64,000 nt of DNA from Lama glama (lineage: Eukaryota), in assembly GCA_028534125.1 (NCBI GenBank), contig CM052849.1, positions 18,786,001 to 18,850,000 on the forward strand, in the 5' to 3' direction. Under the pieces are notes generated by a model that worked only from the letters and a program-made list of their open reading frames with translations, searched no databases and was not told where the DNA came from. The translations under genes were made by a program, and so were the position numbers. Below, in pieces: positions 28,290 to 46,230 of this stretch (position 1 is its first letter; each line of letters opens with the position of its first letter).

Positions 28290-28910
28290 TGGCAGGGGCA
28301 CCAGGAGCCAAAAGCCGGGCGGGCGAGGCTGTCCGTGCCCAGGGCCCAGGTCCTCTCCCGCCGGGCAGCCCCGCGGCCCCGGGCCGGACGGCAGGGCTGG
28401 AGGCTGGCTCCAGGCTCAGGGGTCCCCCAGGACCCTGCCGAGCCCCCCCCCCCCGCCCCCGGCGCAGCGCTCCCAGGTTACCACCGGCTCCCCTGACAGG
28501 TGTCACCCAAAGGCTTCTTTCCGGCCCCATGTGACCAGCTTGGCACCTCCTGCTCCTCACGCTGAATTTTCCACCACGGGGGCAGAGGGCGAGGTGGGGA
28601 GCGGCCCCACCCATGCGTTCCTTCCAGCTGTTTCTAATCCAGCTCTGGGCCACGAAGCAGCCTCCATGTCACCTGCGGGGGGGACGTGCCCCTGCCCTGG
28701 CGTCCGGAGGGAAGACGGCGCCAAGACGAAGGCCGGGAGCGTCTCTCATCCCCGCGCGCTCGCTTCTGAATCCGCGTCCAGGCCCCGCCACCGGGGGTGA
28801 TGAGCTGCCCCGCGCGTCCCGGCTCCGCGGAGCGCGTCCCCGGTGCGCGGCAGCTGCCACCTGCTCCCTGCCCGCGACCCACGTGCGTCTTCCCGAAGCG
28901 GCCAGACACA
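28290..28910. other. CpG-island-like GC-rich segment
   Basis: Dense CG dinucleotides (ccgccggg, ccgcggcc, cgcgcg, ccgcggagcgcg); no recognisable gene start. Confidence 0.7.
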
Positions 28911-29167
28911 GGCTCTCTCCACAAATGTCACCATCTTCTCCAAGTCTGTCAGCAGCGCCAGTCAAGTCTGTGTGCTCAGTTGGGAGCTTAAAGGCTTCTG
29001 GAAACCAGACCCCTTTCCTGGAAGCCGAATTCTGCTTTGAATCCGTAGGATAAATTAAGTCCAGTGACTGTGCCCGGGGAGGGAGGGGATGGGGGCACCC
29101 CAGATGAAGGAGGGCAGGTGAGCTGGGGCCGGGTCACGCAGGACCTCACTAACCACTCTTGGGACTC

Positions 29168-30290
29168 TTTTTCAAGACTTAATTTTTAAGAGAAGCTTTA
29201 AGTTCACAGGAAAATTTCAAGGAAAATATGAAGATTTCCCACATACGCACAGCCTCCCCGCTTACACCTCCCCCACCAGGCGGTACATTTGTTACAAGTG
29301 AGGACCAACACTGACACATCAGGACCATCCAGCGTCCCTGGTTCATGTTAGGGTTCACTTTTTTTTTAATTGACGTCTAGTCAGTCTACAACGTGTCAAT
29401 TTCTAGTGTGCAGTGTAACAGTTCAGTCACCCGTGTACATACGTACATTCCTTTCCATAGTCTTTTCCATTATAGGTGACTGCAAGACAGTGAATATAGT
29501 TCCCTGTGCTCTGCAGTAGAAACTCATTGTTTATCTATTTTATATTTAGTAGTTTAGTATCTGCAAGCCTCGAACACACAGTTTATCCCTAGGGTTCCCT
29601 CTTAATGTTGTTCATTCTGTGGGTTTGGACAGAATAAAGCTGCTGTCAACAGCTGTGTGCAGGTTTTTGTGCGGATGTCAAGCTTTCAGTCCCTTTGGGT
29701 AAGCAGGAAGGAGGACAGGTGGCCGGCTGCACGGCTACAGGACGTTTCGTTTTGCAGGAAACTGCCACGCAGTCTTGCACGGCGGCTGGACCCTTCTGCC
29801 TTCCCACCGTCGGTGACTGAGCGTCCCTGTTGCTCCACAGCCTCCCGGCGTCTGGCGTCAGTACTCCAGAATCTGGCCATTCGAATTCTGTGTAGAAGTA
29901 TCTCGCTGTTGTTTTAATTTGCGTTTCTCTGACGACGTACAACGTGGAGCATCTTTTCATGGGCTTATTTTCCATCTGTGTATTATCTTTGCAAAGATGC
30001 CTGTTAATTTCCTTGTTCCCCTTTTAAATTGGGTGGTCTGTTTTCTTGCTGTCGAGTTTTAAGTATGGTCTGTGTATTAAAGATAACCGTCCTTCATCAG
30101 ATGCGTCTTTTGCAAATATTTTCTCCAAGTCTGCGGCTTGTCTTTTCGTCCTCTTGAGAGTGTTTTCTGCAGGATGGAAATCTTTAATTTTAATGAAGTG
30201 CATCTTACTAATTCTTTCTCTCAGGGATACTTCCTTTGGGGTTGTATCTATAAAGTTGTCACAGACTGAGGGTCACCTACATCTCCTTCT
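29168..30290 (-). mobile_element. Old L1 (L1MC1-like) 3' region with internal deletion and a nested younger L1
   Basis: agacttaatttttaagagaagctttaagttcacag...ttctgtgggtttggaca, then end-of-ORF2-like gttttaatttgcgtttctctgacgac...tttgcaaatattttctccaagtctg. Confidence 0.85.
29360..29589 (-). mobile_element. Young L1 3' end nested in L1MC, with 11-bp TSD
   Basis: T tail + aattgacgtctagtcagtctacaa...gtttatccc; TSD tagggttcact (29349-29359) / tagggttccct (29590-29600). Confidence 0.9.
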
Positions 30291-31745: not shown

Positions 31746-32089
31746 AGTAGTAATACTATTTCTATTACTACTACAACTATTATTGTTATTGACAAAGATC
31801 ACATGGTAAGTAGCTACCATTTGATATTTCCTTATTCTCAGCCTATGATTTTTTTCTGCTCTATGGCTAAAACTCAAACAAACAAACGGAAATCAGCATT
31901 CTTTGAGTCTCCAATCACGCATTTATAAACCGTCTTGTTTCACTAAGGGCAAGAATCAAGAGATAAACACAGCGAGCAGATAATAAGAAAGCAAAACCGC
32001 TCCCAAGTTCTGCCCTCTGTCTGGCCGCAACCTGGATTCTCACATGCGAGGGGGCAGCGTCATTTCAGACCTGCCGATGCAGGGTCTCT

Positions 32090-32880
32090 AGGAAGCCCGA
32101 CCCCCTCTGGGGTGTCCGCGCTGCTGTACACAAGCGGGCCAGTCCTCTGGGTTAAGGGGTGCCTCTCCTGGGTGCGTCTCTCCGGGGAGCCCCCAGTAAC
32201 CGTCTGGACCCGTGCGGACAGGCCCACGGGTGCGGCGCTGACAGACACGTCTGGGGGAAATGGCTCCAGCGGACAAAAGCTACGCTGGGGCAGGGGGAGA
32301 GCGAACACCGCACCGCCGGGCACCGATGCCTGGGAAGTGCCCAGTGGAGCGTGTGTGCCTCGGCCCGACGGGGCGGACGGCTGCGCCCGCAGCGCGGCGC
32401 TTCCAGGAAACGCGCTGCAAAAGGGAAGGCAGCTCTCGCAACAACGGGACAAGGAGGACGGCGCGCTAAGCCCGTGTGCGACTCACCCGCAGGCGGCTTC
32501 CCCCCGCGCTCGCCTCGCCGCAGCTCGAAACCTGCAGGTGGAAGACGAGCCCCGAGCCAGGGCCCGGCCCAGCAGGGCTCCTCACGGCCCCCCTCGGAGG
32601 CGCGCCCCGTCGTCGGCGTGGTTCTTCCCACGGACGTGCGTAAGGGAGCGTGTGCGCCCGGGCGGTGGTGACTTTCCCAAAGAGGTGCGCGCTTGTTCTC
32701 AGACCTGAAAACACACCCACCCCCGGGAACGCATTACCTGTGGCTTGGGTCTCCTTCCCTTCTCTCTCTCTCAGCAAAACGACACAGCAGAGGAAGCGGC
32801 AGAAAACCTCGATCATCCTGTTTAACAGGGTTACACGCGGGGGACGCGGAGGGGCTTCACCCGCCACCGCCCCTCGGTGC
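32090..32880. other. CpG-island-like GC-rich segment
   Basis: Very frequent CG dinucleotides over about 0.8 kb; overlapping ORFs in many frames reflect stop-codon scarcity. Confidence 0.7.
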
Positions 32881-34574
32881 CTGGAAAAGATGGGACGTAA
32901 TGCTCCACCAAGAGCCCACCCTGAAGCTGTCAGCAAACTAAATGCCACCCGGACTTTGATGCTGGGCGTCTCCCTGGCTCCTCCAGGAATTCTCAGATCG
33001 GACTCCCGCTTCAGGTTCCTGGAAGACTCTTCAAGAAGTGAACGCCCGTCTTCTGAACGCAGCCAGCACAGTAGCACTTACGGAACGTCTTTCCCCCAGT
33101 TAATGTGCCCACTGGCTGGCGGCTCCCGGGGAAGGGAAGACCTTTGGAGAGGAACTGGGACCCTGCACGGGTTGGTCTGGGTGCGGAGGGCAACAGAGAG
33201 GAAGCTCCGGAGAGTCTCAGCCAAGTTCTTTGGAAGGTGTTGGGATCCTGCCTTGCTGGTGAGCTTTTGTTTTGGCTACAGCGAAAGTGGGTGATGTTTC
33301 TAACCAGCACGTTGGAGCGGAAGGGGAGGGGGTGGGTCCTTGAAGGGCGGGACCCTGTAACTTCTAACCCACGGCCGACTCTGAGAACGGCTCCATTTGT
33401 GATGAAAGAACATTCCTCATGTGTGTCTGCGTTTAACCAGGTCCAGCCCCACGGCAGCAAAGGGTCCCCGTCCAGCAGATCCACAGCCTAAAATCGCTCA
33501 GAGATGACTGACAGTTCAACCTCCCAAGGGTGAGCTGAGGGAGCCTGTGGGTGCGCAGGTCTTGGTACTCGGAAAAGGGAAAGAAAACCCCTTTCATTCT
33601 GATGATGGATTTGGTCACTTACCTTTACGCCTGGAGCCATATTTGAAAAGAACAAGACGTCTTCCGTGAAACAGCAGCTGGGAAAGACTTTGCAGCCCTT
33701 TCTAGGATAAATAATTCGCTGTTACCTGATTCCAGGGTCACTCCTGAAACTGGCATGCCCGGTGGCAGGAAGGAACGATGCTCCGCGGGGAAGTGGTAAT
33801 GGCGTGGACATTCATTCCCCTTCACCCTCGCGGGTTACAGGAAGAGGTGACCCTCGCGCCTTTCAGTTCATCCAGGAATCAGTCCTACACGGATATTTAA
33901 AGGAGCAACGCCCTCTATTTTCCAGATGAGGCAGACACCACAGTGTTAGCTTAACAGTGACTTATTTCTTCTATATTCTGCTTTCACTGGAAGCTGACAT
34001 CTGCTTGCTCAAAACGTCTCACCCTGACAGGTGACACAGCCGCCAGCATGTCCCCGGGGCTCTCTGGGAGCCAANNNNNNNNNNNNNNNNNNNNNNNNNN
34101 NNNNNNNNNNNNNNNNNNNNNNNNNNNNNNNNNNNNNNNNNNNNNNNNNNNNNNNNNNNNNNNNNNNNNNNNNNNNNNNNNNNNNNNNNNNNNNNNNNNN
34201 NNNNNNNNNNNNNNNNNNNNNNNNNNNNNNNNNNNNNNNNNNNNNNNNNNNNNNNNNNNNNNNNNNNNNNNNNNNNNNNNNNNNNNNNNNNNNNNNNNNN
34301 NNNNNNNNNNNNNNNNNNNNNNNNNNNNNNNNNNNNNNNNNNNNNNNNNNNNNNNNNNNNNNNNNNNNNNNNNNNNNNNNNNNNNNNNNNNNNNNNNNNN
34401 NNNNNNNNNNNNNNNNNNNNNNNNNNNNNNNNNNNNNNNNNNNNNNNNNNNNNNNNNNNNNNNNNNNNNNNNNNNNNNNNNNNNNNNNNNNNNNNNNNNN
34501 NNNNNNNNNNNNNNNNNNNNNNNNNNNNNNNNNNNNNNNNNNNNNNNNNNNNNNNNNNNNNNNNNNNNNNNNNN

Positions 34575-37407: not shown

Positions 37408-38419
37408 GGAATATAGCTGTGCAGTTAGTAGCAGAAATGAAATGTCTGCATACAATCACCCACTACTTATTAAAACAAGTAAGACATTATACACATTCTC
37501 CCTTTTGTGTCAACTTTTCTCTGCTGAATAGCAGTTCAAAAAACCACAAGTGCTGTCATTGCCATTTTTATTTTGTTTCGGCTAAAGGTGATCACAACTG
37601 GGTCAGTGGAAGCTGTGGAGATGTTTTAAAAAGCTCCGCGAATCTTCGGACACCCCTCCCACCACGAGGTGGTGCCGCCACGGAGGAATAACAAGTGAGG
37701 GTTTGAAAGGAGGACCCTGGAGGTCTTCGTGAGAGCGTGGGGAGGTGGGGGTGGGCGGACGAAGCCCCAGACGCACCTGCCTTTGGGAACACGCCCGGCA
37801 TGCAAGCAGCCGGTAAGCTAAGCGTGGGAGAAACGGCAAGTCCGCGTGGAGGTCATGCCAGTATCGGAAGGCACACTGGCCTTGCCGAGGCAGGAGGAAC
37901 ATGGCAAGAGTTCAGAACAGAAGAAACAAGTCAACAGATCGGCTGAATCCGGTCAGGGGTGAAGAAACCTGGAAGGCAGGGTTCAGACTCAAGTTGGAAT
38001 TCGCTAACAGATGAACGGGGTTGTCCGGATGGGAAGAACCGCCACCTGGCTGTTTGGAGGCTCCAGATCAGCTGTTCTGGTCAAAAAAATTTTTTGTCCA
38101 CAAGCAATATCGGCCCACTGAGAAGAACATACTAATTATTAGGAGATAAAACTCAATTTGTTTAGGTCCGTAACCTCAATTTGCTGGAAAGGGTAAAATT
38201 ATTTCCTTAGTGAGTCTAAAATCCAGAAAAGTTAATAATGAAAAAAGGGATGCTGAAGTAATTCAGGCCTGTTTATTAATATTTTTGTGTTAAGCTTAAA
38301 TATTGTTGGAGAATATTTTGTATGTAAAGTGCTTATAATATTAAAGATAATTTGTCACATTAGTTAAGAGATTAGACTTGTGATTCCAGCTAATACAGAG
38401 AATTTACCAATTAATTTTT

Positions 38420-38530
38420 AAAAAGTTTTTCTGTTTTCTGTGTTTTAATAGAGGCACTGGGGACTGAACCCAGGACCTCTTGCATGCTAAACATGCGCTC
38501 TGCCACTGAGCTACACTCACCACCTCCCCA
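38420..38530 (-). mobile_element. tRNA-derived SINE (Vic-1-like, short form) with TSD
   Basis: gaggcactggggactgaacccaggacc...ccactgagctaca; caattaatttt on both flanks (38408-38418, 38532-38542). Confidence 0.9.
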
Positions 38531-39000
38531 GCAATTAATTTTAGTTTGCAATTTAAAGTTGACAAGTGTACAACAATTTACCTAAGTATAAAGAAGATTG
38601 GAATGTTTGAGAGAACTTGAAAGTCCTCTGTACGTTTATTTATTAGAGTTGCTGGGGCTGTTAAAGTATTTAAGAGAGCCTTCCATGCTAATGAGGCATA
38701 TACATTGCTTAAAAAGAAGCCAGATATGTTAAATTTATTAATGTATTTCGAAACATTTAAAGGAATTTAATTTACTAACGTATTAAAACTTTCTCCTAAA
38801 AGGTTATAAAATAACAGTTTTATAAATAGAATCTTAAAAATGTTCAGTTGAACTTCAAGGCTTTCGTAAAATCATTTTGGCAATTGTTTAGCAAATAGAA
38901 TATTGAAAAGAACAAAAACAAAACAAGTAGCTGCGAATAGCATTTTCTCTGCTTGGAAACAGCTTTAAGGCATCAAGAACCCAGAGGACTGAGCAGTCAT

Positions 39001-42124: not shown

Positions 42125-42370
42125 ATACATGTGTATAAACACAGAATAATATTGCCACCATATTATATACTGGTACTAAATATACATCGCTATATATTAT
42201 ATATATGTATGTATATACACAAAATAATATTGCTGCTATATTATACATCAGTGTTATATATCGCTATATATAATATACATACATATGTAATGCATATACC
42301 TATATACACACCTATATGTATATGTATATACACATATATACACACAATGAGTATATATATAGAGAGAGCG
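42125..42370 (+). repeat. (TA/CA)-rich low-complexity region containing a ~78-bp imperfect duplication
   Basis: acacagaataatattgccaccatattata (42139) and acacaaaataatattgctgctatattata (42217), each followed by atcgctatata. Confidence 0.8.
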
Positions 42371-43259
42371 AGCAATCATTATAATTCCTGTAATGCTGCT
42401 TCATTTCTTCACTTGGTGGGTAAAATGACTATTACAAAGTAAATGGAATGCAATTCTTTAATAACAGAATAAATAATGAGCAGCTCTATGATTACATTTT
42501 CAGAGCAAAAGTTTCTGTAGTGAGTAAAATACATTTTTCTGTTTGAAATAAGAAATGTTTTCTCCAATCAAATTTGGGAACCAGCAACCGATTTGTTAAC
42601 AGGGTCTAAGCCAGGTGACACCCTTGGCAGCCAACGACGACCCTTGGCTAGTGTTTATTCAAGTCACTGAAGAAATGTGAAATTAAGTGGGTCTTACTGA
42701 ATGCGCATTGTGATTAAAACCAAAGCCTGCCTTTTAGTCCTGTATGATTTACTGACACCCAGGCACCACTGGATTGTTGTAAATTAAAGATTAGTGTGTA
42801 TGTTTTTGGTTTGGCTCAAAGTCCACGGTGACAGTGAATGGATGTATTTGACAGAGGCACGGGGAAGCGGTGGGGAAATCGTATCAGCCTAACCCAAGTG
42901 GAACAGAGGAAGGCGGTTGTTAAACGGATACGATTCTAGCAGAAGTGTTGATCTGGGTGCGGAGGGCTACCGAGGACACGCACGGAAGACTCTCATGACA
43001 CCACACATCCACGGGGAGTGGCTCATCGCCCCACCGACACACCAGAACTGGAGCCTCAGGACACAGGGGCCCGTTTGGCAGGACTGAGGGTTACCTGACC
43101 TCCGGGAGCCCAAGGGAGCAGAGGCAGCATAGCCCACTTCCCGCCTGCCCTTGGGCCAGTGGGGGACCTGCTGCAGAACAGCTAAGCTGCAGGGCACGGT
43201 GCCCGCCGGCTGGGGAGGGGGCGCTGTCAGTCCCAGGAAGGGCTGTCGGGTGGGGCAGG

Positions 43260-44085: not shown

Positions 44086-45064
44086 CTGAGGATAACCTTG
44101 ATGAAAATCAAGCTTCCAAAAGCCAACTGCTGTTCATCTCTAGCTGGATGAAGGCTCGAGGCTGGAAGTTGCTGTCATCTCGTGAACAGGGAGATTCATG
44201 GGTTTAAAGTGCGACACATGAGCCCTTCACTGATCTCAGTATGATCCGAGAGACTCGAATGAAACAGCAGCAGCATGCTCACCGTGTGCTCCGGGTCGTA
44301 TGTGAGCATCCTGGGAAGATCCGCGTCTTCCTGCCACCCCCTGGGAGGGGGAAAGGCCGGACTCAAGGATGCCAAGTCCCCATCAGACTCCGGGGCACCC
44401 ACGCTGCCTGGGGCATTGGCTTGACCACAGCTCTGCATGGGTGGGCTAATAACTCTACGCTAAACTGTTTCTCGTTTCACAAGCGGTCTGTTCCATTTCA
44501 GAAGAATGAGATATTTTACCTGAAAGCCATTCTGCCCTCGAGTCATGAACGAACCAGATGTGTGTTATGTTTTTCAGAGAACACTATTTCAGACAAATAT
44601 GCGTTATTCTCCAGTATATTTATGGGCCTTTTGGTCTGCATAGCTCTTCAGGTTAAAACCATTACCATTGATAACCAGTTTTAGGCATTTTACTTCGTCT
44701 TAGGGACAGCCCATGTACCACGGCTGCAGGAGGAGGAGCAGCTAACTAGGTTACGGCTGATCAAATCTATGATGAACTGACTTTTATTTTACTTATAAAT
44801 TCATCCCACAAATATTTATTGGATACATATTTAATATATGCTATTGCTCTACCAAGATTTATTTTTTAAAGAACCCATTCATGCATGTATTATAATTAAT
44901 TAAGTATCCAAGATAATACCTTCACAGTGACGTACAGATTATTTAATAATGATGAGCTCTCTGAAGTTTATTGGACATTATATTGATAAGGGCCACATAG
45001 CACGTGATTTACAAATGATAAAATGTATCATATCCTTTATTAGATACTCCCCATTGCCAATTGA

Positions 45065-45530
45065 TTTTTTGTTTGTTTGTTTATTAAGACTTTATTTTTT
45101 TTTGAGCAGTTTTGGGTCCACAACAAAGCTGGCGGGAAGGGACAGAGATTGCCACACGCCCCCGCCCCCCCCCGTGCACAGCCTCCCGCACTGCCGACAC
45201 CCCCCAGGGGGCGCGTTTGTTACAACCGACATCAGCACCAGCCAAAGGGCGCCGTCTACGTGAGGGTTCTCGCCGGGGGCCGCGCGTTCTGTGGGTTTGG
45301 ACAAATGTCTGATGCCATGTAGCCGCCACCATGGCCTCATGGAGACGACTTCACTGCCCTGAAACTCCTCCGCGCGCCACTGGTTCATGCCTCCCCTCCC
45401 CCAGCCCCTGGCCACCACTCGCCTTTCTCTCCGCGGGCATCGCTGTGCCTTTTCCAGAATGTCATGCAGTGGGAATCAAACAATATGTGGCCTTTCCAGA
45501 GAGGCTTCTTTCATTTTGTGATACGGATGC
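45065..45530 (-). mobile_element. Old L1 3' UTR (L1MC1-like), strongly GC-shifted
   Basis: agactttatttttttttgagcagttttgggtccaca...ttctgtgggtttggacaaatgt...gccttttccagaatgtcat; colinear with the 29168 copy. Confidence 0.88.
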
Positions 45531-45874
45531 AAGTTCAGGCAGCTGCGTAAGGCGCAAGAGCGCCGCCCCGCCTGCCCTTCCAGGGGCTCGACGCGCGATC
45601 CCCTAACCTTGCGAGCACACATCTGGTGTTGCGTGTCAGGGGCCGGGAGAGCGGAGCGTTCCCAGTGCGAGGATCTGGTGTCATGAGGGCTGGTGCAGTC
45701 CCAGATCCACCACGTACAAGGTAGTCACTTAGAGGCCTTGGGCCTCAGTGTCACACGCACTTCACACACCCCGCACAGATTATTTTTGTGCAGAGATCAC
45801 GCCCGCCTTGCGCTTAGCACCAGGCCTGGCCGCGGGCAGCGCTGGAGGCTCGAGAAACGTCGGCAGTGATGACT

Positions 45875-46230
45875 CCTGCAGGTCGGGCTCCGGGGAAAGT
45901 CTCTCAGGTGACGTTTAGCGTGGAGCTGCTTATTAAACGGTGCCCTTGGGACCATCTCCCGTGGGAGGGTAGAAAGAATGAAGGACGGAGCAGGGGGAGA
46001 TGCTGGTCACCCGGCAGGCCCAGAGATAGCCTTCATGGACCCCTCCCATCACCTCTGGGGCGGGATGGTTCAGCAGAGCTGTCCCCAGTGCGAGGGAGAG
46101 GGCCAGGCTTGCAGACCCCTGTGTGGACCAGCCACAAGACGTGGGGAAGGAAGGGCCTGGCCTTAGGAAAAGCAACTCAACAGGCTGTCTTTGCAGGGGC
46201 TGCCGGCTGAAGACCCTTAGCTGGGGGCGC
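45875..46230 (-). mobile_element. ERVL LTR (LTR16-like)
   Basis: caggtcgggctcc...cttattaaacggtgcccttggga...cagagctgtcccc...gggccaggcttgcagacccc resembles remembered LTR16. Confidence 0.55.

Follow-up and report, generated by a model that had tools for sequence, protein, structure and literature searches.

Location and features of the site

The window, that is, the whole stretch of 64,000 bases of the Lama glama genome which was analysed, comprises positions 18,786,001-18,850,000 of a contig of 21,107,567 bases (C34), and the site described here lies 2.3 Mb from the end of this contig. The label chromosome end, as used below, relies on the nearby end of the contig and on presumed synteny; a telomeric repeat array was absent from the one 5-kb sample inspected near the contig end. 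Among 426 open frames, the 120 longest were compared with Pfam, by which a TMEM132 exon was located 106 kb downstream of the site and a DEAD-box exon at 20.5 Mb. The nearest start codon found belongs to a candidate first exon with a signal peptide (L119:1190-1274), 40 kb downstream. Judging from these open frames, the site is probably intergenic and upstream of a TMEM132 gene, which we take to be TMEM132C, the region presumably being the counterpart of distal human 12q. The TMEM132 exon 106 kb away, the second of the gene (L125:8345-9237), has a GC3 of 0.95 and a GC12 of 0.64 and is rich in Ala, Arg, Gly and Pro, and GC-biased gene conversion (gBGC) may have affected the protein. An Rfam search over the window returned only three tRNA-like matches, all of them in SINEs. 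The features of the site are as follows (positions without a label are those of the window).

45080..45535, minus strand: old, 5'-truncated L1 3' end (3' UTR), from profile alignment (nhmmer match 45091-45535)
45060..45110, minus strand: decayed poly(A) tail and polyadenylation signal of this L1, with little GC shift
45100..46000, no strand: GC- and CpG-rich patch (GC 0.61, CpG observed/expected 0.73)
44761..45060, no strand: AT-rich flank, single copy (GC 0.28)
29168..29632, minus strand: paralogous L1 3' end, used for comparison in the initial annotation, with a SINE inside at about 29363-29590

Copies of the element in the own genome have one end in common, which carries a T-rich tail, and differ in where the opposite end lies, and long paralogues (such as L047, L062, L076, L077, L089, L095 and L105) continue into ORF2 homology when compared with ORF2 pieces of a young L1, young L1s having been located by an endonuclease search. 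The common tail end, the variable other end and the ORF2 continuity together identify the target copy as an L1 3' end on the minus strand. While its L1 identity rests on this analysis, the subfamily name L1MC is used here as our assumption. L1MC is given as a Eutheria-wide clade (PMC9252281). The initial annotation had placed the GC-shifted copy at 45100..45450; the shift is present there, but the copy itself spans 45080-45535 and the patch reaches to about 46000. A further extension of the L1 past 45535 to about 45640 was dropped, as 119 of 1000 shuffles scored equally well. Two of the copies collected, L022 and L023 on contig C89065, are of equal length class, GC and CpG in opposite orientation; they probably represent a duplicated or mirrored assembly segment and were counted once.

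Substitutions in the L1 copy

The 455 bp of the L1 at 45080-45535 are the only part of the tract for which an ancestral state can be deduced. This state was taken as the majority profile of 55 paralogues (665 columns, GC 0.39), in which low-majority columns and likely ancestral CpG columns were masked. Polarity is thus derived from the paralogue majority instead of from orthologues, and the 55 copies were chosen by similarity to two queries, both of them copies other than the target. These profile counts supersede an earlier pile-up survey of 264 kb which had no matched background.

Over columns 20-480 of the profile, 79 of 244 A/T positions have changed to G/C (W>S) in the target copy, as against 5 of 162 changes in the opposite direction (S>W), 6/244 A-T exchanges (W>W) and 11/162 G-C exchanges (S>S), the latter including C>G at 9 of 103 sites. 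The resulting equilibrium GC (GC*) is 0.91, and the copy contains 27 CpGs. Within 45100-45450 the same comparison gives W>S 68/187, S>W 2/134, W>W 3/187 and S>S 9/134. About one third of the A/T sites of an old L1 fragment have become G/C, with almost no G/C lost. Although 31 of the changed bases in columns 20-480 sit in CpGs of the target, the bias remains when all target CpGs are masked (W>S 52/217 versus S>W 5/138). The W>S changes are evenly distributed along the 450 bp.

The initial annotation had rested on a pairwise comparison with the paralogue at 29168, from which the target was said to differ mostly towards G/C. The strings quoted are present at the positions given, and the direction is borne out by the alignment, in which 42 columns are A/T in the paralogue and G/C in the target and 8 are the reverse, besides 142 identical, 10 S-S and 5 W-W columns. 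The two copies were also described as colinear, which holds for about the first 255 profile columns; beyond these it does not. The paralogue is split by the SINE. The paralogue is itself mildly GC-shifted (W>S 17/90, S>W 8/61) and serves as a regional control. As to the gain of CpGs that had been pointed out, there are 26 CpGs in 45100-45450, compared to a mean of 3.0 and a maximum of 13.3 per 440 bp in 111 other copies of the element.

The derived bases at the 79 W>S sites are private to the target, their mean frequency among the 55 profile copies being 0.047 with none above 0.2, and the GC-rich bases are hence missing from the family majority. This bears on the idea that the copy comes from an L1 subfamily with a higher GC content or that the pattern is an artefact of alignment or assembly, which we find hardly credible and which is already largely refuted. 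Other L1 subfamilies do occur among the matches in the region, 57 of 69 of which start past column 260, but the private bases led us to reject a GC-rich subfamily; moreover, the best own-genome matches to the target are just 68-78% identical and its W>W divergence is as in the same family. As for the assembly, 71-94% of the sampled words of 44400-46000 are present in 19 of 24 sequencing runs, from 7 studies, which argues against an assembly artefact, one of these 19 runs being possibly the source of the assembly.

The changes are also symmetrical between the strands, with A>G at 23/110 versus T>C at 29/134 sites (p=1.0) and A>C at 9/110 versus T>G at 18/134 sites (p=0.22). A-to-I editing of the L1 RNA would predict T>C only on the plus strand here, whereas A>G does not differ from T>C here and there is a rise in transversions as well. 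The strand symmetry thus excludes RNA editing before insertion as the source of the shift.

Comparison with other copies of the element

For comparison we used 111 copies, comprising the 55 profile copies, 26 copies found with the target as query, which are for this reason biased towards GC, and 30 copies picked by an 18-base motif along one chromosome. Their GC* has a mean of 0.38, a standard deviation of 0.12 and a maximum of 0.68, with median W>S and S>W of 8.3% and 13.8%, so that the W>S excess of the target (GC* 0.91) far exceeds that of the other L1 copies. Across 92 of the 111 copies, those with W>W above 4.5% or without a flank being left out, GC* tracks the GC of the flank (rho 0.54).

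Rates were fitted against a background of 18 of the 30 motif-picked copies, the other 12 being left out for W>W above 4.5%. In the target, W>S transitions and transversions are raised 3.1- and 4.0-fold and S>W transitions and transversions are lowered to 0.18 and 0.13 of the background, while W>W stands at 1.3 and S>S at 2.75 times the background. With one parameter each, a bias model (B=3.07) outperforms a model of altered mutation rate by 56 log-likelihood units (299.4 versus 355.2).

These rates speak to a local mutational bias, with more A/T>G/C and fewer G/C>A/T mutations, as the cause of the shift. Together with the editing of the L1 RNA discussed above, we judge this account very unlikely. 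The 2.75-fold rise in S>S, mostly C>G, does hint at an added mutational component; on the other hand, W>W is normal and a uniform rise of the rate fits 56 log-likelihood units worse than bias, which rules out uniform hypermutation. We know of no mutational process that lowers S>W five- to eightfold at non-CpG sites.

The regional background

In the 844 kb around the site there are 69 L1 matches scoring at least 40 bits. Only 12 of them include the family-specific tail region; the 57 which begin past column 260 lie outside the same-family set and contain other L1 subfamilies. The target differs from the 11 regional controls pooled with a Fisher p of 5e-10. After leaving out three controls with W>W above 4.5%, the remaining 8 same-family copies together give a GC* of 0.60, corresponding to a B of about 1 above the genome background. 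The W>S rate of the target is equalled by two of these 8 (54/184 and 53/166) and its low S>W by one, at L213:8207-8751 (W>S 54/238, S>W 6/160).

This last copy, located at C34:19,278,207-19,278,751, is likewise an L1 3' end of the same family, strongly shifted towards GC and containing 24 CpGs. Two further L1 pieces near CpG-rich patches, L209:1554-1855 and L206:9217-9720, show W>S of 32-34% and S>W of 12-18%; the latter piece may belong to another subfamily. In the regional L1 copies (C34:18.49-19.33 Mb) the C<>G rate is 0.050 versus 0.027 in the background, about double, and A<>T has hardly changed (0.032 versus 0.026).

SINEs of the region are shifted in the same direction. Non-CpG W>S is 10.2% in 126 regional copies of one type versus 5.0% in 24 copies elsewhere, and 11.2% in 64 copies of a second type versus 6.8% in 18 copies elsewhere; the divergence of the copies elsewhere is lowered, since the SINE profiles were largely built from them. 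W>S shows overdispersion among the 126 copies (chi2 334 on 125 df), with a weak increase where the nearest flank is denser in CpGs (rho 0.25, p=0.005), a relation which was not significant in the 64 copies of the other type. One SINE within a CpG-rich patch, at about L202:9442 (C34 about 19,169,440), has non-CpG W>S at 30 of 104 sites versus 10% regionally (p=1e-7) and is probably a younger record of the same bias.

The patch at the site is one of 60 CpG-rich patches in the 844 kb. Further such patches lie in the window at 28400-29200 and 31900-33100 (GC 0.63-0.64, CpG observed/expected 0.64-0.83), and the long open frames scanned in these two gave no Pfam match. The shift had been described as local: there is indeed a local peak, but it sits on a regional bias visible in L1s and SINEs of the 844 kb and is not unique. 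The site is a local peak on this regional bias, and it is special in that an old repeat inside the patch records the change.

Edges of the tract and the AT-rich flank

The GC- and CpG-rich patch extends to the right of the L1 to about 46000, about 900 bp in all, and 45100-46000 is likely the full extent of the biased tract. In own-genome searches that skipped very common words both flanks proved to be single copy, and the part to the right of the L1 cannot be polarised for this reason. At the other end, W>S is 3/23 in the first, tail-side columns versus 75/224 further in (p=0.058), and the tail region at 45060-45110 is probably the left edge of the tract.

The flank beyond it was noted at the outset to stay AT-rich, and 84 of the 300 bases at 44761-45060 are indeed G/C. 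Under the rates of the L1 copy, the probability of 84 or fewer G/C in 300 bases is 3e-7 from a starting GC of 0.15 and 3e-13 from 0.25. As the observed GC of 0.28 is very unlikely under these rates from any realistic start, 44761-45060 has escaped the bias, which points to an abrupt end of the tract or to constraint on the flank. AT-rich islands outside detected repeats and in a GC-rich setting are found in the window at 44761-45060, 38125-38975 and 42350-42575, and are candidate constrained non-coding elements.

A constrained flank would suit a different account of the site, in which the L1 took on a regulatory role upstream of the TMEM132 gene, with directional selection favouring G/C. The patch does lie 40 kb upstream of the candidate first exon and adjoins this single-copy, possibly constrained AT-rich sequence. 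Selection on such an element is nevertheless very unlikely indeed in our view: the W>S changes are spread evenly over the 450 bp, and unrelated repeats across the region carry the same signature. Nor are AT-rich islands enriched beside CpG patches, 4, 6, 9 and 14 of 56 lying within 300, 500, 1000 and 2000 bp where 3.1, 4.7, 8.2 and 13.9 are expected, and the homeobox word TAAT is not enriched in the flank (713 of 2000 shuffles reach the observed level).

GC-biased gene conversion as the probable source of the GC gain

We consider it highly probable, from the substitution pattern, that gBGC best explains the GC gain, acting on a patch of about 1 kb for much of the time since insertion of the L1. 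gBGC had been proposed as the cause in the initial annotation, and this proposal is well supported by W>S raised and S>W lowered, by strand symmetry, by the inclusion of non-CpG sites and by the private nature of the derived bases. We infer recombination at the site. Meiotic breaks at the patch would have been repaired often, with A/T-G/C mismatches in the heteroduplex resolved towards G/C. Compared with the genome background, fixation would thereby have been 3-4 times more frequent for new G/C alleles and 5-8 times rarer for new A/T alleles, under a population-scaled bias B of about 3, of which the regional share would be about 1. Such a bias would let new CpGs persist even when methylated. 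The breaks may have arisen at a single stable site that does not depend on PRDM9 or at PRDM9 hotspots that formed repeatedly in a recombination-rich chromosome end, and the L1 is likely a passive recorder of the process and not its cause.

Simulations (40 runs each) reproduce the composition of the copy. With B=3.5 and a tenfold decay of CpGs, W>S is 36%, S>W is 2.7% and the copy holds 27±5 CpGs, compared to the observed 32%, 3% and 27. With B=3 and no CpG decay the CpG count is matched equally well (28±4). As the count is fitted alike with and without CpG decay, the methylation state cannot be read from it.

The same simulations address the possibility that the patch is an orphan CpG island or enhancer, unmethylated in the germline, where escape from methylation kept the CpGs and GC rose without any fixation bias. 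This would agree with the GC of 0.61 and the CpG observed/expected of 0.73 over the roughly 900 bp of 45100-46000, with the 31 changed bases in target CpGs and with the good fit of B=3 in the absence of CpG decay. Without fixation bias and without CpG decay, though, only 7±2.5 CpGs are expected and S>W reaches 20%, and the observed excess remains at non-CpG sites (52/217 versus 5/138) and in transversions. An unmethylated island without fixation bias is thus very improbable: hypomethylation alone is ruled out by the simulations, and while it may coexist with gBGC it cannot replace it.

Two observations count against the gBGC reading. Plain gBGC does not predict an increase in S>S, which is raised 2.75-fold here, a rise that is partly common to the regional copies (rate 0.050 versus 0.027). 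The other is the abrupt left edge, with 300 bp of flank still at a GC of 0.28. On its testable features the site is a gBGC tract, and it is not assignable as a PRDM9-independent hotspot.

Duration of the bias and PRDM9

The near absence of S>W changes is informative on the duration of gBGC at the site, since G/C losses from before a late burst would still be visible. A bias lasting for most or all of the age of the element fits better than a burst in the last tenth of it by 8.4, 5.9, 4.3 or 2.7 log-likelihood units, depending on whether a genome or a regional background and a fixed or a free age were used; the support is lowest, 2.7 units, with the regional background and a free age. The fit of an early burst with subsequent decay is poorer even than that of the last-tenth burst. 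These fits lean, though not decisively, towards a long moderate bias with B of 3-5 over a brief burst. Of the long-lived or very intense hotspot envisaged in the initial annotation, the long-lived alternative with a moderate bias is favoured, and the very intense burst is disfavoured by the 2.7-8.4 units given above. Should the element be L1MC, part of a long-lasting bias would predate this lineage.

Hotspots turn over rapidly in many mammals (PMC12290510), and persistence would for this reason need a PRDM9-independent site or repeated PRDM9 hotspots; the latter would leave the same pattern as one stable site. In a scan of 35 of 175 frames, a PRDM9-type gene was found with open SSXRD, PR/SET and finger exons, and KRAB-like exons were identified by motif. 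Its last exon (L223:3047-3799, at the end of contig C35) encodes two intact tandem C2H2 fingers only and one degenerate finger, which is possibly a real short array or a minisatellite collapsed in the assembly. A supplement of PMC5519329 lists camelids as having KRAB, SSXRD and SET along with the three catalytic tyrosines.

Relation to known gBGC tracts and hotspots

The human and chimpanzee gBGC tracts described by Capra et al. 2013 (PMC3744432) average 1,018 bp at B=3, are clustered and lie near chromosome ends. The present site is similar in its clustered W>S excess, which is polarised over 455 bp and probably extends over about 1 kb, in its patch of about 900 bp and in its position near a contig end. 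Unlike those tracts, which were detected on a short branch with outgroups, it spans the whole age of the L1, involves one third of the A/T sites and is polarised by paralogues. Duret and Arndt 2008 (PMC2346554) report a higher GC* near telomeres and a 4Ns of 5.2 for the average human hotspot, and the B of 3-5 found here is of the same order. The spectrum also agrees with the one they describe, in that W>S is up, S>W is down, A:T>T:A is unaffected and C:G>G:C is up, the last only weakly in their data. The same study expects most hotspots to be too mobile to become substitution hotspots, whereas long or repeated action is needed to explain why S>W changes are almost absent at this site.

Joseph et al. 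2024 (PMC11161765) described PRDM9-independent hotspots at hypomethylated loci in many placentals whose PRDM9 is intact; no camelid is named in the text or in those supplements of that paper which were examined. The site shares with such hotspots a sharp GC* peak at a CpG-rich patch that includes non-CpG sites and PRDM9 domains which are apparently kept, and a long persistence would fit. Their loci are, however, hypomethylated in the germline and promoter-like, whereas the patch described here is CpG-island-like in composition and is separated by 40 kb from the closest start codon identified. W>S changes are also clustered in the W>S-biased accelerated exons and their flanks reported by Berglund et al. 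2009 (PMC2631073), which are located in regions of high male recombination; in contrast to these exons, the target is non-coding, repeat-derived and far older. Judged by title and abstract beginning, searches of the open literature, including camel and alpaca gBGC and camel PRDM9, gave no paper on this locus (subscription papers and bioRxiv supplements fell outside the search). The process is already known, and the site is a strong and extreme example of it, with no new mechanism shown.

A more specific proposal, which we put forward tentatively and regard as unlikely, is that the patch is a stable PRDM9-independent hotspot far from promoters, active for most of the time since the insertion of an L1 of eutherian age, and that many of the 60 CpG-rich patches are likewise products of such activity and not regulatory islands. 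If this were true, repeats inside such patches could date the lifetimes of hotspots in a lineage that seems to keep PRDM9.

At this site a neutral process that can look like selection has left a clean and extreme record, with CpG-island-like DNA built from an AT-rich dead repeat. For the CpG-rich patches at this chromosome end, composition alone gives no ground for promoter calls. The copy is also usable as a dating tool, as its near absence of G/C losses bears on the stability of hotspots in mammals that keep PRDM9.
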